A stretch of 64,000 nucleotides of DNA, taken from the NCBI GenBank assembly GCA_015478645.1, contig JADMIL010000002.1:74523-138522 (forward strand). Reading direction: 5' to 3'. This document shows positions 37,614-48,022 of the stretch, piece after piece (within the stretch, counting starts at the first letter, position 1; each line of letters starts with the position of its first letter). A model generated the notes under the pieces. The model was not told the origin of the DNA, made no database searches, and was given only the letters and a program-made list of their open reading frames with translations. This stretch comes from Candidatus Binataceae bacterium. GTDB taxonomy: Bacteria > Desulfobacterota > Binatia > Binatales > Binataceae. The translations under genes and the position numbers were made by a program.

Positions 37614-38375
37614 CTATTGCGGCGCAATTGCGTCTTGAAGGACCAGCGTATGCAAATCTTCCTGGCGGAAAATTCCGGCGACCGCCCGGGTAATCGCGAC
37701 CGACAGAACTTCACCCGGCAGATCGTAGATCTCGGTCTCGTCGGCCGGCGCCGCATTGGCCGGTGGGGTCGGCGGATCGCTGTAGTCGGCGTCGCTCTCG
37801 CCCGACCAGAAGGGCACCGCGAAGGGCGGCTTGAAGATTTCAACCTCGAGCGTCACCTGCGCGGCCGTGAACCACGCCGGTCCGCCCTCCTGGTCGGCGC
37901 CGCGCTGCTTGACCACCCACAGGCCGGTGATCTTCGACTGCACGACGTAATCGGCGCGGCGCGCTTCGAGCGCCTGCGCGAGCGCGGCGGTCGAGGTTGA
38001 CGAGACCATCCCAGCCTCCCGCGCGGCCTGCGCGATCGCGTCGCGGAACAGCGGTCCCAACTCGGGGCCGTAAAGTTGCTGGACGGTGCGTCCGTGATGA
38101 TCCAGGACCACGCCGATCGCGGGATGGCCCTGGTAGGGGTCGTGCGCGGCGCTGCCGGCCTGCTTGAAATCGCGCACGTCGGCCGGGGTCAGGACCACGA
38201 TGCGCCGCGCGCTGGGATAGCTGTGCTGGTAGCCCTTAACCTGGAACGGGTAGTACTGCAGGGTCTGGATCGAGACCCGCGGCAACCCGAGGTTTTCATC
38301 GTTGGTCGCCGCACATCCGGCGAAGATCCACGCCAACCCCAGTCCGAGGAGGAGTGCGGCGATGCGGCGCGGCAT
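37614..38375 (-). CDS. hypothetical lipoprotein (last gene of the kinase operon)
   Basis: MPRRIAALLLGLGLAWIFAGC lipobox; 7 bp downstream of the TM-FHA gene. Confidence 0.8.
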   Translation of the reverse strand: MPRRIAALLLGLGLAWIFAGCAATNDENLGLPRVSIQTLQYYPFQVKGYQHSYPSARRIVVLTPADVRDFKQAGSAAHDPYQGHPAIGVVLDHHGRTVQQLYGPELGPLFRDAIAQAAREAGMVSSTSTAALAQALEARRADYVVQSKITGLWVVKQRGADQEGGPAWFTAAQVTLEVEIFKPPFAVPFWSGESDADYSDPPTPPANAAPADETEIYDLPGEVLSVAITRAVAGIFRQEDLHTLVLQDAIAPQ

Positions 38376-38382
38376 CGCGCGC

Positions 38383-39255
38383 TCAGCCTTGCGAGGCCTG
38401 GGACCGCTCGCGAAACAGGAACAGGGTGCCGCCGATCTCGACGCGGTCGCCGCTCTTCAGCACGCAGCGCCCACTGACCGGCGCGCGATTGACCAGCACC
38501 TGTCCACCGCCGGTCGAAGTGACGAAAAAACTCTTGCCCTCGTTGCGGATGATCGCGTGATGGGAGAGCACCGCCTGGTCGCCGAACAGGCCGATATCGC
38601 TCTCCTCGGCGCGGCCGATAAACGTCACCGGCTTGACCAGCGGATATTCGCGCCCTTCCCGCGCGTTGCGGCTCTGCGACCGCACGACCATCAGCCAGCC
38701 GCGCTTGAGCAGTTCGCTGACCAGGCCAACGAAGAAGCCGATCAGCGCGCCGATCAGGATAATCGCGATCGCGCGGCCAAAAGCCTGTGGAAAGGTCGCG
38801 GTGAGCGCCTGGTAGCAGAAGCCGCCGGCCGCGCCGCCGGTCAGCCCGCCGATCGCGCCGTTGCGCCGGCGCGCGTTGGAATGCGTCGCCCAGCCGACGC
38901 CGAGTCCGACCGCGAGGCCCAGCACGGCCCATCCGAGGATGCGGCCGTTGAAGCCGCCGAGCAGGTCGAAGGCGATTTCGCCGATCAGCAGGCCGAGCGC
39001 GCCGCCGATCGCGCCGATCAGCGCGCCGCCGCGGATCCCGCGCATCGCTTGCCGCCACTGGCCGACGCTGAGCGCTTCGATCGAGGCGAGAAACGCGCTG
39101 ATAAACATCCCCACCAGCGCGCCCAGCAGCAGGTCGCGGCCGTAGACCGAGCGGATACCCAAAAAGGGTTCCGACGCGCCCCACGCAGCGAGGCCGCCGA
39201 GTCCGCCGGCAGCGGCATAGAAGAGCAATTTTTCGCGCGAGACGTTACTGGCCAT
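38383..39255 (-). CDS. multi-TM (Gly-rich helices) protein with C-terminal FHA-like domain
   Basis: About six Gly-rich hydrophobic helices, then TFIGRAEESDIGL...HHAII...LKSGDRVEIG. Confidence 0.85.
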   Translation of the reverse strand: MASNVSREKLLFYAAAGGLGGLAAWGASEPFLGIRSVYGRDLLLGALVGMFISAFLASIEALSVGQWRQAMRGIRGGALIGAIGGALGLLIGEIAFDLLGGFNGRILGWAVLGLAVGLGVGWATHSNARRRNGAIGGLTGGAAGGFCYQALTATFPQAFGRAIAIILIGALIGFFVGLVSELLKRGWLMVVRSQSRNAREGREYPLVKPVTFIGRAEESDIGLFGDQAVLSHHAIIRNEGKSFFVTSTGGGQVLVNRAPVSGRCVLKSGDRVEIGGTLFLFRERSQASQG

Positions 39256-39359: not shown

Positions 39360-41765
39360 TCAGTCGGCGTGGGTGGTCCACGTGCCGCGCTGGCCCGAGG
39401 GGGTCGATTCGAAGGTCCCGCTCAGTTGATCGTGATTGCGCTGGCCCTCGAAGAAATAGGTTTCGCCGCCATAAGGAACCTGGAACTGAAGATGGTCGCC
39501 GCGCACGAAGCCTTCGATCGGGGTCATCCCATAGCCGCTCAAATGGACCAGCAGTTCGCCATGCAGAAAGCCGTTGGGCTGCGGCCGCAGCCGCAACTCC
39601 ATGCTGACGTTGCCGTGGCCGCCGATCCCGTCGATCGTGCCGGTGGCGAGCGTCGGCGTCTCGAGACCGATAGCCGGCGAGACCGCGCCGCCGCTCGCAC
39701 CGCCGCCGGCGCTCGAGGCCCCGCCGCCCGCACCGCCACCGGTGTAGGGCAGGCCGGCGTCGGCCACCACGCGGAACTTGCGCTGGGCGAAATACTGGCC
39801 GTTCAAATAGAAATTCACGGTGTACTGGCCGGGCAGAAAGGCGCCGCCGGCGGAATTGCCGACGCGTCCGCTGAACACCGCGCGGTTGTTCGATTGCGCG
39901 ACGGTCTGGACGTCGGCGACGCTGCCCAGCGTGCTGCCGTCGGGTCCGATATAGGCGGCGTCGACGCGGTATTGATTGGTGTTAAGGCCGTACAGGCGAT
40001 TCTGGAACACCGCGCGCCATCCGATAAACAGCACTTTCGAGACGTTGAAGGCGCTGGTCGGACCCGAGAGCGCGGTGCCGTCCTTGGTACTGTTGACGAA
40101 TTCGATATTCTGCAGGGCGAGCGGGCGGCGCGTGCGCTCTTCGATCATCGCGACGCGGGCGGCGTCCTGCTTGGCCTTTTGGGCCTCGGCGCGGGCCGCG
40201 TTGGCGGCGTCGGCGGCGGCCTTGTCGGCGGCGGCGCGGGCGTTCAGGTCGGGCGTCACGTCGAAGCGCTGCTCGGCGAGGACCCGGTCGTCGGAGTAGA
40301 GCGCGATTTTGTAGCTGCCCGGGACGATCGGCGTGGCGTTGGGAATCAGCGCGACGCCGCTGAAGTCGGCCGCCGGATCGTTGGGCCCGACGTAGCGGGT
40401 GTCGGGACTCGCGGCGATCTGATTGCCCGACGGATCGAAAAAGCGCGCCTCGACCTGGTCGTTGCGCCCGTCGAGGCCGGTCATGTTGTTATGGAACGAC
40501 GCGTCCCATTTCACGTACTGCGCGTTGGCCAGCTCGGTATCGGTAAACGAAGCCTTGGGCGCCGACAGCGGGCTGCCCGAGCGGGTCGAGAGCGCCAGCG
40601 TCATGCGCTCGAAGGCGAGCGGATGGGCGCGCGCCTGGTCGAGCAGCTCCTGATGCTTCCACGGCAGGCTGTCGACGAATTGGGTCACGCCGAGCTGCGA
40701 CTGCAGGGCCGGGTCCGAGTAGATGTAGGTCGCGCCGAAGGCCAGTCCGGCGATCATCAGCGTGAACCCGCCCAGGCCGATCGCGCGGCGGCGCCAGTTG
40801 CCCGGCTTGCGCCGTGGCCGCCGCGCGGCCGCCTCGGCGAACTCGGGCGGCAGCGCCGCCAGCGCCAGGTCAGCCGTGCCGCTTTTGGCGTTGACCCGCA
40901 CCGCGCCCGCCGCGTCAAGCCCGCGCCCGTAGAGCAGCATGTCACGGAATTCCTGCACCGAGGCCGGCCGCCCGTCCATCTCGTAGGCCAGCGCGCGGTC
41001 GATCGCGCCGGCCAGATTGGTCGAGATATCGGGGCGCAGCGTGCGCACGGGCGGAAAGCTGAAGGGCGGAAATTTTTCCGGATCGCGGCCGGTGACCACG
41101 TAATGCAGCGTGGCGCCGAGCGAATAGAGGTCGCTGCGCGGATCGGCCACGCCCTGGTACTGCTCGGGCGGGGCAAAGCCCAGCGTGCCGATCATGGTGC
41201 CCTTGCGCGCCGCCTTGAACAGCCGTGCGATGCCGAAGTCGACCAGCACCACGCGCCCCTTCTCGGTGAGCATCACGTTGGACGGCTTCATGTCGCGGTA
41301 GACGATCGGCGGGATCAGCCCGTGCAGATAGGCCAGCACGTCGCACAACTGGCGCGCCACGTCGATCACCAGCCCCTCGGGCAGCGGTCCGCCACGCGCC
41401 GCAAGCTCCTCCTCGAGGTTGCGCCCCTCGACGTACTCCATCACCAGGTAGTGGCGGTTTTGATCGTCGAAGCGATCGCTTATCGCCGGGATTGCGGGAT
41501 GCTTGAGCTGGGCCAGCGTGTCGGCTTCGCGGGCGAAGTATTCGTTGGCCTCGATACGCTGCGCGGCGTCAATAAAATGATCGACCATCTCTTTGATCGC
41601 GCAGGGCCGGTTCGACAGCCGCTGGTCATGCGCGAGGTAGACCATCCCCATACCGCCGCCGCCGAGCAGGCGCTGCACCGCATAGCGCTTCTGCAGCACA
41701 GTGCCGGCTTCGAGCGGGCCGGGCAACGCTGCGGAGTTGGCGAGCGAGTTGGGCGTATTGGCCAT
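39360..41765 (-). CDS. Hanks-type Ser/Thr receptor kinase with TM and extracytoplasmic repeats
   Basis: LGGGGMGMVY, CAIKE, YRDMKPSN, DFG, FAPPEQ, DLYSLG; TM GLGGFTLMIAGLAFGATYIY; two beta-rich repeats. Confidence 0.93.
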   Translation of the reverse strand: MANTPNSLANSAALPGPLEAGTVLQKRYAVQRLLGGGGMGMVYLAHDQRLSNRPCAIKEMVDHFIDAAQRIEANEYFAREADTLAQLKHPAIPAISDRFDDQNRHYLVMEYVEGRNLEEELAARGGPLPEGLVIDVARQLCDVLAYLHGLIPPIVYRDMKPSNVMLTEKGRVVLVDFGIARLFKAARKGTMIGTLGFAPPEQYQGVADPRSDLYSLGATLHYVVTGRDPEKFPPFSFPPVRTLRPDISTNLAGAIDRALAYEMDGRPASVQEFRDMLLYGRGLDAAGAVRVNAKSGTADLALAALPPEFAEAAARRPRRKPGNWRRRAIGLGGFTLMIAGLAFGATYIYSDPALQSQLGVTQFVDSLPWKHQELLDQARAHPLAFERMTLALSTRSGSPLSAPKASFTDTELANAQYVKWDASFHNNMTGLDGRNDQVEARFFDPSGNQIAASPDTRYVGPNDPAADFSGVALIPNATPIVPGSYKIALYSDDRVLAEQRFDVTPDLNARAAADKAAADAANAARAEAQKAKQDAARVAMIEERTRRPLALQNIEFVNSTKDGTALSGPTSAFNVSKVLFIGWRAVFQNRLYGLNTNQYRVDAAYIGPDGSTLGSVADVQTVAQSNNRAVFSGRVGNSAGGAFLPGQYTVNFYLNGQYFAQRKFRVVADAGLPYTGGGAGGGASSAGGGASGGAVSPAIGLETPTLATGTIDGIGGHGNVSMELRLRPQPNGFLHGELLVHLSGYGMTPIEGFVRGDHLQFQVPYGGETYFFEGQRNHDQLSGTFESTPSGQRGTWTTHAD

Positions 41766-41858: not shown

Positions 41859-43991
41859 TCAGGCCGCGATAATCACCACTACCGAGATGTTGTCGGTGCC
41901 GCCGCCGGCATTGGCTCCGACCACCAGTTCGCGCGCCGCCTGGTACGGATCGGCATGGCGGCGCAGCACCTGCTCGATCTGGGCGTCCTCGAGATGCGCG
42001 GTGAGGCCGTCGCTGCATAGCAGAATGCGGTCGCCGCGCTTGAGCCGCAGCATGAGCGATTCGGCGCCTGCCGGGCCGTTGGGCCGCGCGCCGAGCGAGC
42101 GCGTGATCACGTTCTTATGCTCATGATGGCGCGCCTCTTCGGGCGAGATCTGGCCAATCTCGATGAGCCGCTGGACCAGCGAATGATCTTTCGTCACCTG
42201 GCGCATCCCGTGCTGATCGCAAAAATAGGCGCGGCTGTCACCAACCCAGGCGACTGCGGCGTCGGGCGGCACGACCAGCGCGGCGACCGCCGTCGAGCCC
42301 ATTCCGCGCGCCTCGGGATGGCCGACCTGGTAGTCGAGCACTTGGGTATTGGCCCGTTCGAGCGCATCCTGCAAAATCTGCCGCATAGCGCCGCCGGCGG
42401 CGGGATCGCCGAGCTGGCTTTCGACGTAGCTGCGGATCGCGCCGACCGCGATCGCGCTGGCCATCTCGCCAGCCTCCGCCCCGCCCATCCCGTCGGCCAC
42501 GACGTAGAGGAAATTCTGCGCCGGCTCGAGCAGCGAGTCACGCTGGTATTCGACCGCCATGGTCGAATCTTCGTTAAACTCGCGCACCATCCCGACGTCG
42601 GTCAGCACGCCAGCCCGTATCCGGATAATTCCGGCGAGCTTGACCAGCTCGGTCTTGAGTGCGTCGAGGTTGGGCCAGCGCGACTCGGGCTCGAATTGCA
42701 ACGCGCGGCGCACCGCCTGTTCGAGCGCGGGCGCGACCACGTGCGGCGGGTAAAAGCGAATCGGCCCGGCCTCCTCGCGCCAGCTCTCGGCCTCGAGCCG
42801 CTCGCCGGTCAGGCAGGCGTAGAGCACGGCGCCGACCGAAAAGACGTCGGCGCGCTTGTCGACTTTTTTGCCCTTGTAGATTTCGGGCGCCGAGTAGCCG
42901 TCGTTGAAAATCGGCTCGGCCTGCAATTCGTTGTCGTTGCTGATGTAGTCGAGGCCGGTCAGTTGAATCCGCCCGTCGGCGCCGACGGCGATCGACTCGG
43001 GGCAAATATCATTGACCCGCAGGCCGCGCCGGTTGACGAAGGCGACCGCCTGGCAGAGTTGAATCGCGATCGCGATCGCGTCGGCCTCGCTCATCCGCAG
43101 GCCGCCCGCGCGGCGCGCCAGCGGCGTCAGCGGCTCGTCGGGGTAGAGCAGGTAGACCCGGCCGTCGCGCGCAAAGCCTTCGTGTGCGCGCTGGAACGCC
43201 GGATGGTTGAGCGTCATCGAGAGCGCCATCACCCGCCCGAAGACCTCGCCGAGATTGTCCTGCGAACCAGCGGGCTCGGGATTAACCGGCGCAGGCTCGG
43301 CGTCAAGTTCGGCGGCGGGCGCGGCCTCGCCGGAATGCGCCGCGTCGGAGTCGGTCGCGTCAGCGGCGGGCTCGGCCGCCTCGCCGATCGCGTCGGCGAG
43401 GACCAGCGGTGCGGCCGCCGCGCCATTGGTGTCCGTGGGCGGTGCGGAATTTTCAGCGTCGCCGGATTGATCGGTGGCGGAGACCGCGGGTTCCGTCGAT
43501 GCGATCGTTTCACCAATCGCCGCCGCGTCGCCGCTGGCGGGCGGAGGGGCGGCGCGCAGCGGCGGAAGTTCGGCGGTCTTGGCCCGCGGACCGTTCGGAT
43601 CGTCCAGCGCCGCCGCGGTTTCCGCGAGGTCGTCTGCGACAGTAACTTTCGCTACTTCTAGTACAGCCGCGGCGGCGGCCTCCGCCGCGTCTGCGCCGGG
43701 CGAAGCTTCGCCCGGCACAGACGCGGCCGGCGGTCCCGCCTGCTCGCGCAACTGCCAGCGCTCGATCCGCCCGGAGAGGCCGGGGCGCTCGGCGCGATAA
43801 CGATTTTCGTGCGCGGTCTGGCTAATCAGTTCGACAATGCGCAGACCGCGCCCGAGCCCGGTGCCGGGCGCAAGCGGCGGCAATTCGACGCTGGCCGGAC
43901 GTGCCGCCCCGCGCGACAGCCCCTGCCCGCAGCGATCGCAGAATTTATTTTGCTCGGCGTTCGGCGCGCCGCATTCGGAACACGTAATCAT
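41859..43991 (-). CDS. Zn-ribbon + degenerate kinase domain + PP2C (PPM) phosphatase fusion
   Basis: CSEC..CDRC; kinase remnants VNDICPESI, TGLDY, YSAPE, DVFSVG; PP2C motifs TDVG...NED, VADGMGG, GDSRAY, CSDGL, GTDNIS. Confidence 0.88.
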   Translation of the reverse strand: MITCSECGAPNAEQNKFCDRCGQGLSRGAARPASVELPPLAPGTGLGRGLRIVELISQTAHENRYRAERPGLSGRIERWQLREQAGPPAASVPGEASPGADAAEAAAAAVLEVAKVTVADDLAETAAALDDPNGPRAKTAELPPLRAAPPPASGDAAAIGETIASTEPAVSATDQSGDAENSAPPTDTNGAAAAPLVLADAIGEAAEPAADATDSDAAHSGEAAPAAELDAEPAPVNPEPAGSQDNLGEVFGRVMALSMTLNHPAFQRAHEGFARDGRVYLLYPDEPLTPLARRAGGLRMSEADAIAIAIQLCQAVAFVNRRGLRVNDICPESIAVGADGRIQLTGLDYISNDNELQAEPIFNDGYSAPEIYKGKKVDKRADVFSVGAVLYACLTGERLEAESWREEAGPIRFYPPHVVAPALEQAVRRALQFEPESRWPNLDALKTELVKLAGIIRIRAGVLTDVGMVREFNEDSTMAVEYQRDSLLEPAQNFLYVVADGMGGAEAGEMASAIAVGAIRSYVESQLGDPAAGGAMRQILQDALERANTQVLDYQVGHPEARGMGSTAVAALVVPPDAAVAWVGDSRAYFCDQHGMRQVTKDHSLVQRLIEIGQISPEEARHHEHKNVITRSLGARPNGPAGAESLMLRLKRGDRILLCSDGLTAHLEDAQIEQVLRRHADPYQAARELVVGANAGGGTDNISVVVIIAA

Positions 43992-43996
43992 CCGCC

Positions 43997-45784
43997 TCAG
44001 CCCCTTCGGAACTCCAATCTAGCACCGCCCAGCACGACTTCGTCGTGGTCTTTGAGTTGGTAGAGTTGATCGCGGCCGAGCCGCCCGCGTCCGGCGATAA
44101 AGGTGCCGTTGAGGCTGCCGAGATCGCGGATGAAATAGTCGGCACCGCGCCTGATGATCTCGGCGTGGCGGCGCGAGACCCGATCGATCCCGCGGCGCAG
44201 TTGGGCGAGATCGATATCGAGGCTCTCGCCGGCCCCGCGCTCCGCCTCGCTCGAGCGTCCGATCACGCAGCGTTCGCCGGCCAGCGCGAACTGCGCGCCT
44301 TCGCCCAAAGCTATCATCCGCGCACCGGCGACCGCCGCCGCGCCGCCCGCATAGCCGTTGCGCTGCGCCGCCGGCGCGCCATCGGATACCGCGGCCAGCG
44401 CCGGATGAATCCCCGGTGCGGCCGGACGGTTGACGGGAGTCGCCGGCGGGCCGTTCGCGTTAACCCTCCGCGCCGGCGCAAGTGGCGGCGGCGCGGGCTG
44501 GGTGATTGGACTGGCCGGATTTGGCTTGGTCGGCGGGCTTATCGGCCCGCGCGCGCCCGGCGCCTTGGCGCCGGCCGGGTGGCTCGCCGCGCCGGACTGC
44601 GGCGGGCGCGCCGGCTTGATCCCGAGATCCTGAGTCTTGGCGGTCGATGAAACCGCGGACCGAGCGGCGACCGGCGCGGCCGGCGTGCGCGGTACTTTGG
44701 GCGCCCACGGCGCCGGCGGCGGGAGGCTCCGCTGGGTCGCCTGATGCGCGATCGAAGGCGTCGCCTTGGGCCGGGCGGCGGGCGTCGCGATGCGCGAGGC
44801 ACTCATCGGATGGGCCGGCGGCGCTGGCGATGCCGACGGCGGGGGCGCGGGCCGATTCAGCACGATCGTCGCCATCGCGCCCATCGAATCGCCCCTGGCG
44901 CGATCGGCCGCCGCACCGTTGGGCGTCCCGGCGCAACGCGCTCCCGACGCGCCCGCCATCGCGAGCGCTTCGGGTCCCGGATTGGGCAGCAGGTCGCGCA
45001 TCTCGCGGGCCGAGCGCGGGCGCTTGATAACGTCCTTGTCGAGTGCGCGCATCACGATCTGTTCGGTCTGGATCGAAACCGCCGGCGCGAGCGCGCGCAG
45101 CGGCGGAAAGCTGAAGGGCGGCTCGAGCTGCGGATCGCGTCCGCTCATCAGGTGATGCATCGTGGCGGCGAGCGAGAAGAGATCCGAGCGCGGCTCCATC
45201 TTGCCCATGTACTGTTCGGGCGGCGCGTAGCCGACCGAGCCGATCTGGGTGCCGCGTCCGCCCGGCGGCAAAAACCGCGCGATGCCGAAATCGATCAGCA
45301 TCGCACGCCCGTGATTATCGATCATGATGTTGCCGGGCTTCAGGTCGCGATAGATAATCGGCGGGTTCTGCGCATGCAGGAATTGCAGCACGTCGAGGAT
45401 CTGCCGCGCCCAATGCACTACCGGGGCTTCGGCGAAGCGCCCGCCCACGCCGAGCGCGTCGAGATGGGCCTGCAGGTCGCCGCCCGCGACGAACTCCATC
45501 ACCAGGTAATGTCTGCCGCCCTCGCCGAAATAGTCCATCACCTGCGGGATGCTGGGATGGGAGAGGCTGGCGAGCACGCGGGCCTCGCGATTGAAATCCT
45601 CGACCGCCTTCTGCTCCTGGATCCCGTCGCCGATGATCATCTCTTTGCAGGCGACCGGGCGATTGGCCAGCCGGGTATCGTTGGCCAGATAGACCCGTCC
45701 CATGCCGCCCTGGCCGAGGACCTTGTGGATCCGGTAACGGCCGTCGAGCAGATGGCTGACGGGAAGCGGCTCACCCGATTTCAT
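43997..45784 (-). CDS. cytoplasmic Ser/Thr kinase with Pro-rich linker and C-terminal FHA
   Basis: LGQGGMGRVY, VACKE, YRDLKPGN, DFG, YAPPEQ; FHA IGRS...VSRRHAEI...DLGSLNGT. Confidence 0.93.
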   Translation of the reverse strand: MKSGEPLPVSHLLDGRYRIHKVLGQGGMGRVYLANDTRLANRPVACKEMIIGDGIQEQKAVEDFNREARVLASLSHPSIPQVMDYFGEGGRHYLVMEFVAGGDLQAHLDALGVGGRFAEAPVVHWARQILDVLQFLHAQNPPIIYRDLKPGNIMIDNHGRAMLIDFGIARFLPPGGRGTQIGSVGYAPPEQYMGKMEPRSDLFSLAATMHHLMSGRDPQLEPPFSFPPLRALAPAVSIQTEQIVMRALDKDVIKRPRSAREMRDLLPNPGPEALAMAGASGARCAGTPNGAAADRARGDSMGAMATIVLNRPAPPPSASPAPPAHPMSASRIATPAARPKATPSIAHQATQRSLPPPAPWAPKVPRTPAAPVAARSAVSSTAKTQDLGIKPARPPQSGAASHPAGAKAPGARGPISPPTKPNPASPITQPAPPPLAPARRVNANGPPATPVNRPAAPGIHPALAAVSDGAPAAQRNGYAGGAAAVAGARMIALGEGAQFALAGERCVIGRSSEAERGAGESLDIDLAQLRRGIDRVSRRHAEIIRRGADYFIRDLGSLNGTFIAGRGRLGRDQLYQLKDHDEVVLGGARLEFRRG

Positions 45785-45985: not shown

Positions 45986-46651
45986 TTACGAGATTGGATC
46001 AATCACCAGCTTGAGGAAGGTCTTGCCGATAATGATCTCGTCGTCCCGTTTGACTTCGACTGGCGTGCCCGGAATCAGGCGGTTGCCACGATTGACATAG
46101 GTGCCGTTGAGGCTCCCGATGTCTTCGACGGTAATCTTGCCGCCCTCGATGATGATCAGCGCGTGCTTGCGCGAAATCTTGGCTTCGGGGTCGTCTTGTT
46201 CGAGGTCGACTTCCGGGAACGAGCCGGTTTCGGGATCCCAGCGGCCGATAAAATTTTGCCCCGCCTCGAGCGGAAACTCCTGGCCCTTGCGTCCGCCGCG
46301 GATCAGCGAGAGTTTCGCCTTGAAGGCGGCCGCGGTGGCTGCGGCTGCCGACGCGGGGGCCGGGGCCTCGGTTGGCGCCTTGATCTCGCCGGTCGGCGCT
46401 TGCGACGGTTTCGTCGTCTCGGCGCTCTCGCCAGCGGCCGGTGCGCCATTGGCGGCCGGCGCGCTTTCGGCCGGGGGGCTCTCGGCCGGCTCGAGCCCGG
46501 CCGCTGCGGCTTCGGCCGGGGCCTCGGCGACCGCCGCCGCGGCAGGCGCCGGCGCGGCGCTGCCCTCGACCGCGGCCAGCTTGGCGCCGCAGCCGTCGCA
46601 ATAGTCCAGACCTTCCATATTTTCGTAGCCGCATTCGCTGCACTTAATCAT
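45986..46651 (-). CDS. Zn-ribbon + FHA domain protein
   Basis: CSEC..CDGC; Ala/Pro/Glu linker; FHA IGRWD...ISRKHA...DIGSLNGT. Confidence 0.92.
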   Translation of the reverse strand: MIKCSECGYENMEGLDYCDGCGAKLAAVEGSAAPAPAAAAVAEAPAEAAAAGLEPAESPPAESAPAANGAPAAGESAETTKPSQAPTGEIKAPTEAPAPASAAAATAAAFKAKLSLIRGGRKGQEFPLEAGQNFIGRWDPETGSFPEVDLEQDDPEAKISRKHALIIIEGGKITVEDIGSLNGTYVNRGNRLIPGTPVEVKRDDEIIIGKTFLKLVIDPIS

Positions 46652-46717: not shown

Positions 46718-48022
46718 CTATTCGCCTTTCTGTAAATCCTTGAGCGCTTCGGGGTCGAGCATCTGGGTTTTGCGCACCACCGCCTGCGCCTGCAACAGAG
46801 TTGTCTTGGCCGCTTTGGTTTGCAAGGTCTGGGTCTTTTTCACCTGGTCCATCAGGCCGACCAGGGCCTGCGTGGCCTTGACGTTGCCCAGCCGCTGGGT
46901 GCCCTGAATCGCGTTGCCGAGCAGCCGCGTCGCGCGATCGACGTTGCCCGCCTTGAGCTCCTCTTCGGCGCGCGCCTGGAGCTTGGCGATCGAGACCTGA
47001 TCGACCAGGTTCATCACCCGTCCGTTGCGCTTGCTGGTGAGCGTGCGGTCGAGCGTGTAGTCGACGGCGATATCCAGCGCCGCGGTGCGCTCGCCGACGC
47101 CCGGCACCTCAAAGCGGAAGATCGATTGCGCGATCCGCACCGGGCCGGGCTTGCGCGGCGGCAGCACCAGCGTCAACAGCACCGAACCGGGGACGCCGCT
47201 TTCGAGGTCGCCGATCTCGTAAGTGATCTTGCGGTCGTCGGTGACCAGCGGGGTGCCCAGCGCGTAGATTTCGGGGCTTGCGCGAAACGCCTCGCGGACC
47301 TGCACGCCCTGCGCGAGCGTCGCCTCGATCCGGCCGTTGCGCACGCTGACCGCACGCAACCCCTGCAGCTCGTCCTCGAAGATGCCGGGAATCTCGGCCG
47401 GGTCGCCGATGAAGTGATATTTGCCGTGCGAGTCCTGCGCGATGCGCATCAGCAGCTTTTCGTTGAACTCGACGCCCACGCCCATCGCGGAGAACGACAT
47501 CTGATCGCGGTTCTGGGTGGCCAGTTCGAGGCACGCGGTCTCTTCGTAAGTCTGTCCGTCGGTCAGCACCAGTACGCGATTGAGCCGGTTGGGCGCGTGG
47601 TTCCGTTTGACCTCGTCGATCGCCGCGCGCATCCCCAGCGCCATCTGCGTGCCGCCGCCGATTTCGAGCAGATCGATATCCTCGAGCGCGCGCCGCACTA
47701 CACTCTGATTGTGAATCTGATCGGACGGTACGATCACCTGCGCCTTGTCGGCGAAGGCGATCACCGCGACCTTGTCGTCGGGCGCGACGTTGGCGGCGAG
47801 GAACTTGACCGCCTCGATTACGAACTCGAGGCGCCGCTCGTCGTACATCGAGCCCGAACGGTCGAGCACCAGGGCCAGGTTAAGCGGCATCCGGGTTCCA
47901 CCGGCGCCGCCGCCCGCGCCGCTAGCGACGGCCTCGAGCAGGACGTAGAGCACAAAATTCTCAGCAGTCGAGAGGACATACTCGCTGCTGGCCAGCGCGT
48001 CGAAGGTAAGCGGTTCGGCCAT
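46718..48022 (-). CDS. vWA domain protein with intact MIDAS and C-terminal extension
   Basis: LVLDRSGSM (DxSxS), GGT, LTDG; C-terminal beta domain plus helical tail. Confidence 0.92.
   Translation of the reverse strand: MAEPLTFDALASSEYVLSTAENFVLYVLLEAVASGAGGGAGGTRMPLNLALVLDRSGSMYDERRLEFVIEAVKFLAANVAPDDKVAVIAFADKAQVIVPSDQIHNQSVVRRALEDIDLLEIGGGTQMALGMRAAIDEVKRNHAPNRLNRVLVLTDGQTYEETACLELATQNRDQMSFSAMGVGVEFNEKLLMRIAQDSHGKYHFIGDPAEIPGIFEDELQGLRAVSVRNGRIEATLAQGVQVREAFRASPEIYALGTPLVTDDRKITYEIGDLESGVPGSVLLTLVLPPRKPGPVRIAQSIFRFEVPGVGERTAALDIAVDYTLDRTLTSKRNGRVMNLVDQVSIAKLQARAEEELKAGNVDRATRLLGNAIQGTQRLGNVKATQALVGLMDQVKKTQTLQTKAAKTTLLQAQAVVRKTQMLDPEALKDLQKGE

Follow-up and report, generated by a model that had tools for sequence, protein, structure and literature searches.

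In a stretch of 64,000 nucleotides from a Candidatus Binataceae bacterium (GCA_015478645.1, contig JADMIL010000002.1, positions 74,523 to 138,522 of the forward strand), hereafter the window, we found a minus-strand gene, P0001 (41859..43991), in which a PP2C protein phosphatase is joined to a Hanks-type kinase domain that has lost five of six catalytic kinase signatures. The gene upstream of it, P0002, encodes a kinase with an FHA domain, and the gene downstream, P0003, a receptor kinase. We consider it probable that P0001 is a cytoplasmic PP2C which is targeted or regulated by its dead kinase, acting as a kinase-docking scaffold, and by an FHA docking site at phosphorylated Thr139, and that it is a fixed part of a seven-gene phospho-threonine operon.

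A kinase fold without most of the residues of catalysis

The boundaries of the P0001 open reading frame are exact: it starts with ATG and encodes 710 amino acids, with an N-terminus, MITC(S/P)ECG, that is kept in relatives. Pfam matches PP2C_2 (2.3e-16), PP2C (2.6e-15), Pkinase (4.4e-10, partial) and Zn_ribbon (1e-4), with PP2C at residues 469-702 and the partial Pkinase match at residues 259-400 (profile positions 53-197). Reading from the N-terminus, and on the minus strand throughout, a zinc ribbon with four cysteines (C4, C7, C18, C21) occupies residues 1-25 (43917..43991) and was recognised from sub-threshold Pfam zinc-ribbon matches; its cysteines are invariant in an alignment of 26 relatives, and the zinc ribbon-FHA protein encoded upstream has a paralogous one. 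The kinase N-lobe strands beta1 to beta3 follow at residues 45-85 (43737..43859), assigned from modelled strands and from column mapping to canonical kinases, and then a disordered acidic insert at residues 84-247 (43251..43742), helix alphaC with the kinase C-lobe at residues 248-458 (42618..43250; BLASTP to the flanking kinases, Foldseek and motif conservation) and the PP2C/PPM phosphatase domain at residues 459-710 (41862..42617; NCBIfam Stp1/IreP, phmmer and Foldseek). No transmembrane segment was seen among the sequence features of P0001 examined. A first-pass annotation, made from the sequence alone, had described a phosphatase fused to a dead kinase; both parts stand, and the N-terminal zinc ribbon had been overlooked.

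To place the motif columns we used BLASTP to the two flanking active kinases, and the comparison covered seven canonical kinases in all (these two and five others). The columns of the GxGxxG loop read S-Q-T-A-H-E-N, with Ser, Thr and Glu in place of the three glycines, the beta3 Lys is R82 (WQLRE in place of VAIK) and the alphaC Glu is Val, all likewise in eight clade members; the N-lobe does have a conserved sequence of its own, ENRYRAER. The catalytic loop Y/HRDLKPxN has become VNDICPES (residues 326-333, 42993-43016), which keeps the Asp (D328) and has Cys for the Lys and Ser for the Asn, and DFG has become GLD (residues 346-348, 42948-42956). Retained are YSAPE (residues 366-370, with SAPE at 42882-42893) and the alphaF motif DVFSVG (residues 382-387, 42831-42848), so that of the catalytic-type motifs only the HRD Asp and APE remain. 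The first-pass annotation had read the same missing glycine loop, the same VNDICPES and GLD and the same surviving YSAPE and D-x-F-S-x-G motifs, and the alignment to canonical kinases agrees with it at each of them.

An AlphaFold2 model built from 26 relatives gives strands at residues 50-58, 62-70 and 76-85 with a per-residue confidence (pLDDT) of about 87, disorder at residues 91-243 (pLDDT about 30-40), alphaC at 249-260, and a confident C-lobe and PP2C domain. Foldseek with the full-length model returned PP2C matches only, and the kinase fold was seen with a separate model of residues 1-460, for which the best match is the kinase domain of Mycobacterium tuberculosis PknB (TMt 0.65-0.68, E 1.7e-12), the protein to which an alignment had been proposed at the outset. 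The N-terminal region is thus predicted to be a genuine, bilobal Hanks-kinase fold, and since the AlphaFold2 models and the PknB match concur, the insert would sit exactly between beta3 and alphaC of that fold. Judged by the residues that are missing, the domain is probably a catalytically dead pseudokinase.

The degenerate motifs are conserved within the family and across phyla

We collected a close set consisting of the best 120 of more than 1000 proteins at E<=0.001, that is, 119 listed relatives and P0001 itself. These are full-length, 57-88% identical proteins, whose named sources are metagenome-assembled genomes (MAGs) called Candidatus Binataceae or 'Deltaproteobacteria'. The catalytic-loop remnant RGLRxNDxCxxS is present in 116/120, L-x-GL[D/E] at the DFG position in 117/120 and GYxAPE in 120/120. 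Mean pairwise identity is 75% for the pseudokinase C-lobe, 75% for PP2C, 21-22% for the insert and 83% for a motif island within it. Because the C-lobe is as conserved as the phosphatase, the dead kinase appears to be under the same purifying selection as its partner. Each of the 15 genomes sampled from the window's own bacterial family carries one copy of P0001, and in the family copies the frame is intact, without stops. A sister family of the same class has a 569-amino-acid form. In a phylum-wide genome search nothing else in the class or phylum reached E 1e-25, and the gene is in this sense confined to two families of one class.

A wider superfamily turned up through protein searches alone. 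Proteins with a zinc ribbon, a kinase-like region and PP2C also occur in MAGs named Armatimonadetes, Eremiobacterota/Xenobia, Firmicutes, Methylomirabilota and Acidobacteria, and the matches listed in a second protein search include 117 related fusions, which we took as a wider set. Among these listed fusions the DFG Asp and the catalytic-loop Lys are each present in 0/117, and on this count the loss of kinase catalysis appears older than the split of these phylum-level lineages. The position of the HRD Asp, for its part, is Glu in the sister family and Gly in 36/117 related fusions, so no catalytic residue is constant across the superfamily.

These comparisons bear on two alternatives. If an active kinase-phosphatase fusion had recently decayed in this strain, orthologues with canonical motifs might be expected, and it was such orthologues that the first-pass annotation had named as the finding that would overturn its reading; it had also asked whether the degenerate motifs are conserved. 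None with canonical motifs was found among the 120 close and 117 listed relatives, and the degenerate motifs are shared by relatives of 57-88% identity and by the fusions of other phyla. With the frame free of stops and the C-lobe as conserved as PP2C, we regard strain-specific decay as refuted and its probability as vanishingly small. Conservation over several phyla, beside real kinases and phospho-threonine readers, indicates instead that the fusion has been maintained as part of a signalling system and has not decayed.

The other alternative is that the kinase-like domain is an atypical enzyme or a nucleotide switch that uses D328, D348, R64, R66, R69, R82 and E83, with the bound ligand gating the phosphatase. 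D328 is invariant in the clade, G-[F/L]-[D/E] replaces DFG in 93/117 related fusions, ENRYRAER and E83 are conserved in the N-lobe, and reviews predict that the DYD and DLHK pseudokinases bind ATP through Arg and shifted acidic residues. Set against this are the disappearance of the glycine loop, the beta3 Lys, the alphaC Glu, the loop Lys and Asn and the DFG Asp, all together, and the Glu or Gly that other members have at the HRD position. We think this explanation quite unlikely.

An intact PP2C domain with one unusual substitution

The metal ligands of the phosphatase domain, which the first reading had called intact, are all present and invariant (D475, D500/G501, D585, D661, D700), as is the motif 1 Arg of RxxNED, R470 in the alignment to tPphA. 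P0001 scores 234.5 bits against the NCBIfam Stp1/IreP equivalog NF033484 (cut-off 230), its PP2C domain matches tPphA at 3e-34 in phmmer, and with the full-length model Foldseek ranks PstP/tPphA best (TMt 0.83), PppA being among the top structural matches. P0001 therefore resembles the Stp1/IreP/PstP/tPphA phosphatases in equivalog score, metal Asp residues, RxxNED Arg and fold; those enzymes, however, are single-domain or membrane-anchored, whereas P0001 carries about 460 residues of zinc ribbon and pseudokinase ahead of PP2C.

What the first reading had missed is that DGMGGH, whose His is typical of bacterial Stp1/tPphA-type PP2Cs, reads DGMGGA in P0001 (residues 500-505, 42477-42494), with Ala at this position (A505) in 118/120 of the close set. 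A505 corresponds to His39 of tPphA. The best PDB sequence match of the P0001 PP2C domain is the H39A variant of tPphA. His39 has been implicated in substrate recognition (PMC3375153), and because Ala stands at its position the handling of substrates by the P0001 phosphatase may be unusual.

Two other ideas about this domain were set aside. The cyanobacterial PRK14559 phosphatase family is matched by the PP2C half alone, at 127 bits against a cut-off of 374, and P0001 is not the sole PP2C of its genome, which has 4 PP2C, 9 FHA and about 5 kinase-like genes.

The insert carries an invariant threonine motif with a twin in the neighbouring kinase

The long Ala/Pro/Asp/Glu-rich stretch that the first-pass annotation saw breaking the N-lobe amounts to 164 amino acids between beta3 and alphaC, of which 31% are Ala and 13% Pro, with 29 Asp and Glu against 4 Lys and Arg and an isoelectric point of 4.05; we delimited it by pLDDT, by composition and by its absence from the sister family, in which beta3 leads directly to alphaC. 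Among relatives the insert is unalignable save for one island, [D/E]-D-P-x-G-P-x-A-K-T-x-[E/D]-L, which in P0001 is DPNGPRAKTAEL (residues 131-142, 43566..43601, minus strand) and holds two of the insert's four basic residues. Its core, AKT-x-[E/D]-L within the form GPxAKT-x-[E/D]-L, occurs in 120/120 sequences, so that T139, an acidic residue at T+2 and L142 are invariant. The segment between beta3 and alphaC is 119-179 residues long only where the motif is present, and at most 61 in all other fusions examined.

The pattern AKT.[DE]L has 4 matches in all 2.4 M six-frame residues of the genome, and two of these lie in P0001 and in its upstream neighbour P0002, where the linker sequence STAKTQDLGIK (44615-44647) is near-identical to the P0001 motif. 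S-T-A-K-T-x-[D/E]-L is kept in the P0002 linker of 6/6 syntenic orthologues, and the strict pattern [A/S][K/R]T-x-[D/E][L/I/M] in 109/120 kinase-FHA sequences, the remainder being near variants. Many FHA domains prefer a hydrophobic residue at position +3 from the phosphothreonine (pT+3). T139 and L142 supply the Thr and the Leu/Ile at +3 in an accessible place, the disordered insert. The first-pass suggestion that the insert may hold Thr sites for FHA docking has thereby gained comparative support in the shape of an invariant Thr (120/120), a twin motif in P0002 and the co-occurrence of the insert with the kinase-FHA gene described below, and T139 is a candidate for such a site.

It could also be considered that the insert acts as a flexible acidic spacer and that AKT-x-[E/D]-L works independently of phosphorylation, being read by the metal ion-dependent adhesion site (MIDAS) of the vWA protein of the operon, by the kinases or by PP2C itself. 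An acidic residue at T+2 is not needed for FHA binding, yet it is invariant in 120/120, and the vWA protein keeps its DxSxS MIDAS and, at 78-89% identity within the family, is better conserved than any other operon partner. The Thr and the +3 Leu are just as invariant, however, the operon contains three FHA domains with the canonical GR/SxxH/NG signatures, the other T-x-x-[L/I] linker motifs of the operon have no fixed acidic residue, and the sister family, whose protein has no insert, has the vWA gene too. A phosphorylation-independent role is in our judgement unlikely.

P0001 is a fixed member of a seven-gene operon

Seven genes on the minus strand encode, in this order, a vWA protein, a zinc ribbon-FHA protein, the kinase-FHA protein P0002, P0001, the receptor kinase P0003, a membrane FHA protein and a lipoprotein. 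The vWA protein (46718..48022; Pfam VWA 9.4e-18, vWA-TerF-like 2.4e-7) has an intact MIDAS (DRSGS, 47849-47863), and a promoter-like match lies ahead of its gene at 48072-48043 on the same strand. The second protein (45986..46651) is a zinc ribbon, a linker and an FHA domain, a FraH-like architecture (Pfam FHA 1.1e-12 and zinc-ribbon matches). P0002 (43997..45784) is a Hanks kinase with canonical motifs and a C-terminal FHA domain (Pkinase 3e-39, FHA 6e-13), and its stop codon ends 5 base pairs upstream of the start codon of P0001. P0003 (39360..41765; Pkinase 1.7e-36) is a canonical receptor-type kinase with one transmembrane segment and a large extracytoplasmic part. Next comes a polytopic membrane protein with a C-terminal FHA domain (38383..39255; FHA 1.4e-8), conserved in both families, and last a predicted lipoprotein (37614..38375; lipobox FAGC), assigned from its translation and from synteny and matched by nothing in Pfam or PADLOC. 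In total the operon has two active-type kinases, three FHA domains and one PP2C, and its disordered segments contain at least four conserved Thr motifs with a hydrophobic residue at pT+3.

Five other genomes of the family have the same gene order, and the cluster is syntenic beside glucose-6-phosphate dehydrogenase. The cluster of the sister family consists of vWA, zinc ribbon-FHA, pseudokinase-PP2C, receptor kinase and membrane FHA genes, without the kinase-FHA gene and without the lipoprotein. As the sister family has neither these two genes nor the insert, the three appear jointly. Further afield, Armatimonadota and Eremiobacterota MAGs have a four-gene set of kinase, pseudokinase-PP2C, vWA and zinc ribbon-FHA, and in an Acidobacteriota MAG the fusion accompanies an FHA protein and a kinase-zinc ribbon-FHA protein.

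Several smaller observations concern the same genes. The P0002 linker has a second island of T-x-x-L type, M-A-T-I-V-L-N-R-P (44849-44875, residues 304-312), at least one copy of which is present in 116/120 orthologues. The juxtamembrane region of P0003 contains KSGTADLAL (40860-40886, residues 294-302), of the form G/A-T-x-x-L, with T-x-x-L in 10/10 orthologues from two families, and may be a site of autophosphorylation and of FHA docking. The zinc ribbon-FHA protein has APTGEIK in its linker (46379-46399, residues 85-91), a P-T-G-[E/D]-[I/L]-K motif conserved only in the window's own family, all six sequences of which have P-T-G-[E/D]-[I/L]. The extracytoplasmic part of P0003 (39360-40400, residues ~350-801) gives faint hints of DUF6941 and DUF3859 and apparently consists of two repeated beta-rich modules, a Gly/Ser-rich linker and a C-terminal domain. 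The sister-family cluster continues with a 542-amino-acid vWA-transmembrane-FHA protein (L018:12177-13805) that has no counterpart in the window cluster. Opposite P0001 itself, the plus strand holds an open frame of 514 amino acids (42117-43661), one of many long ones in a stretch of 65-77% GC; we took such frames to be artefacts of high-GC composition and not genes.

The gene content raises the question of whether this is an anti-phage or conflict module of the TerY-P type, with the pseudokinase-PP2C protein as its reset switch. The TerY-P triad, as described in the literature, is vWA, PP2C and a kinase-zinc ribbon protein, the same three domain types as here, and the vWA protein matches Pfam vWA-TerF-like just over the threshold. 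In that triad, though, it is the kinase that has a zinc ribbon or OB fold at its C-terminus, whereas in the window operon the ribbon is on the PP2C and FHA proteins. Moreover, PADLOC gave no match for the vWA, FHA and lipoprotein genes, and its models of TerY-P and other defence systems matched the kinases only generically, which led us to reject them. A single copy in 15/15 family genomes, with fixed synteny by glucose-6-phosphate dehydrogenase, is the behaviour of a core-genome locus and not of a defence island, and we consider a role in defence very unlikely.

A studied relative in Deinococcus radiodurans

In Deinococcus radiodurans the operon DRA0331-DRA0334 encodes a vWA protein, a kinase, a FraH-like FHA protein and a PP2C (preprint 10.64898/2026.01.23.701218). 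Residues 288-707 of P0001, covering the C-lobe and PP2C, align with DRA0334 in one tblastn alignment (E 4e-29, 28.6% identity). The partner genes of the DRA0331-DRA0335 cluster were matched as well, namely vWA (E 7e-27), the kinase, zinc ribbon and FHA pieces, and a second kinase downstream, and by its predicted gene content the window operon belongs to the same type of vWA/kinase/FHA/PP2C module.

The N-terminal module of DRA0334 (NZ_OV024759.1 240269-242119; L025:4879-6729) has been published as 'KI-FHA'. It matches the pseudokinase profile over the alphaE-to-alphaF region (hhalign probability 96.8%), its PDB sequence matches are all kinases (45/45 at E<=10), the best being RSK2 at 9e-4 with PknB among the others, and Pfam gives no FHA match at E<=1 and no Pkinase match for DRA0334. 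The profile match, the kinase-only PDB matches and the missing Pfam FHA match suggest that this module is a highly degenerate kinase C-lobe. DRA0334 resembles P0001 in its homologous C-lobe and PP2C, in its partner genes and in having a long acidic, Ala/Pro/Glu-rich disordered region. It differs in that this region is N-terminal, while that of P0001 lies inside the N-lobe; the module is also far more degenerate than the one in P0001, for which Pfam still finds a partial Pkinase match. DRA0334 moreover lacks AKT-x-[E/D]-L and the zinc ribbon, which is on the kinase instead, and the gene order in D. radiodurans is different. There the operon kinase DRA0332 (L025:2145-3719) begins with the ribbon. 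The gene after DRA0334 (L025:6770-9733), annotated as a beta-helix repeat protein, starts with a canonical kinase domain.

DRA0334 is reported to be a PP2C that depends on Mn. Its N-terminal module reportedly reduces PP2C activity, makes the protein specific for certain kinases and enhances the autophosphorylation of RqkA; a PP2C-only construct dephosphorylates kinases more fully than the full-length protein, and the operon kinase phosphorylates the FHA protein (preprint 10.64898/2026.01.23.701218). By analogy, these behaviours are those that would be expected of a pseudokinase pairing with active kinases. The first-pass idea of a pseudokinase that scaffolds or gates the phosphatase is consistent with these results, in which the module both restrains PP2C and stimulates a kinase; for P0001 such a role would follow by analogy.

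Comparison with known systems

The ideas of a scaffold pseudokinase, of a PP2C with a docking module and of gene sets with vWA, kinase, PP2C and FHA are already known. Plant KAPP is a PP2C with an N-terminal FHA module that docks onto receptor-like kinases and reads their phospho-sites. P0001 likewise has PP2C and an N-terminal docking-type module, but its module has a pseudokinase fold, with no Pfam FHA match at E<=0.1 in P0001, and other proteins carry the FHA domains. A closer parallel for the proposed use of T139 is the pseudokinase of MviN, which, once PknB has phosphorylated it, recruits FhaA through the FHA domain of the latter (PMC12599244). In both, a scaffold pseudokinase would carry a Thr outside the folded core that is phosphorylated by a Hanks kinase and recruits FHA; however, the fusion partner of the MviN pseudokinase (ActPs3) is a membrane protein resembling lipid II flippases and not a phosphatase, the phosphorylated site lies in a C-terminal tail and not in a beta3-alphaC insert, and the domain belongs to a different, actinobacterial pseudokinase family without the HRD Asp, which we compared with P0001 at the level of the kinase fold.

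The threonine phosphorylation pathway PpkA/PppA/Fha1 of Pseudomonas aeruginosa has the kinase, PP2C and FHA types of the window operon, but no secretion-system genes were seen in the window cluster. A PP2C fused to a pseudokinase is not described for that pathway or for TerY-P in the sources consulted. PP2C-kinase fusions with PP2C at the N-terminus were described in Pseudomonas by Krupa and Srinivasan in 2005, with no mention of motif loss, while P0001 has the reverse order and a degenerate kinase (PMC1262709).

Seven pseudokinase families are given in two recent surveys that cover bacterial Ser/Thr kinases and pseudokinases, and none of these families is joined to a phosphatase. P0001 fits none of the named families (ActPs1-3, GLW, CP1, DYD, DLHK), from which it is set apart by their descriptions only. 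Their defining traits include GLW for HRD, DYD for DFG, a linked COG3899 ATPase, helicase/DNA2 and a transmembrane anchor, where P0001 reads VND and GLD, is linked to a zinc ribbon and PP2C, and has no transmembrane segment. In the limited collection of literature searched we found no description of a prokaryotic pseudokinase-PP2C fusion, and the database labels for the family are just 'Stp1/IreP family PP2C' or 'protein kinase'.

A possible feedback loop in the operon

We hypothesise that the pseudokinase C-lobe, which keeps APE and alphaF, forms pairs with the operon's active kinase domains. PP2C would thereby be brought to the activation loops and phospho-sites of these kinases, and its activity would be tempered. 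T139 would be phosphorylated by the operon kinases, and one of the three FHA domains could then bind pT139-x-x-L142, the likeliest being the FHA domain of the co-acquired kinase-FHA protein. Such binding would recruit the phosphatase to the active complex, a negative feedback, and since PP2C may erase its own docking mark, the assembly would be transient. We infer the docking and scaffold role and the pT139 site from the observed fold, motif loss, PP2C ligands, conservation, synteny and motif twin.

Several points weigh against this proposal. D328 is kept and an acidic residue is conserved two positions past the lost DFG Asp, in GLD, which leaves some room for atypical nucleotide binding or catalysis. 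The acidic T+2, invariant and unneeded for FHA binding, could point to another reader such as the vWA MIDAS. The insert and the kinase-FHA gene co-occur in a single evolutionary event separating two lineages, so their association is an unreplicated correlation and not a replicated test. PP2C is without the conserved His, and its predicted activity and substrate range rest on sequence. Finally, the DRA0334 data come from an unreviewed preprint in which the module is read as FHA-like (10.64898/2026.01.23.701218).

More tentatively, and at somewhat less than even odds, all of this could be joined into one account. The zinc ribbon/pseudokinase-PP2C proteins would be an unrecognised cross-phylum pseudokinase family that includes the DRA0334 module and is always accompanied by vWA, a FraH-like FHA protein and an active Hanks kinase, the dead kinase pairing allosterically with the live one. 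The window's own family would then have gained the kinase-FHA gene and a shared AKT-x-[E/D]-L docking motif, inserted in the N-lobe, and with them a self-erasing FHA feedback loop.

The practical reach of these results is limited, as the window's clade is uncultured and everything beyond the anatomy is inference. Bacterial pseudokinases have been little studied, and this locus adds a further conserved family under purifying selection, whose relatives, to go by MAG names, span at least six phyla (Binataceae, Armatimonadota, Eremiobacterota/Xenobia, Acidobacteriota, Methylomirabilota and Firmicutes). In it a dead kinase is hard-wired to the opposing enzyme, with its partner genes fixed, and T139 together with three candidate FHA readers offers a concrete handle on how a phosphatase gets aimed at kinases. 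DRA0334, the only experimentally studied relative, has perhaps had the wrong fold assigned to its docking module; if that module is a pseudokinase, its push-pull data would read differently, the stimulation of a kinase by a pseudokinase being a classical mechanism.

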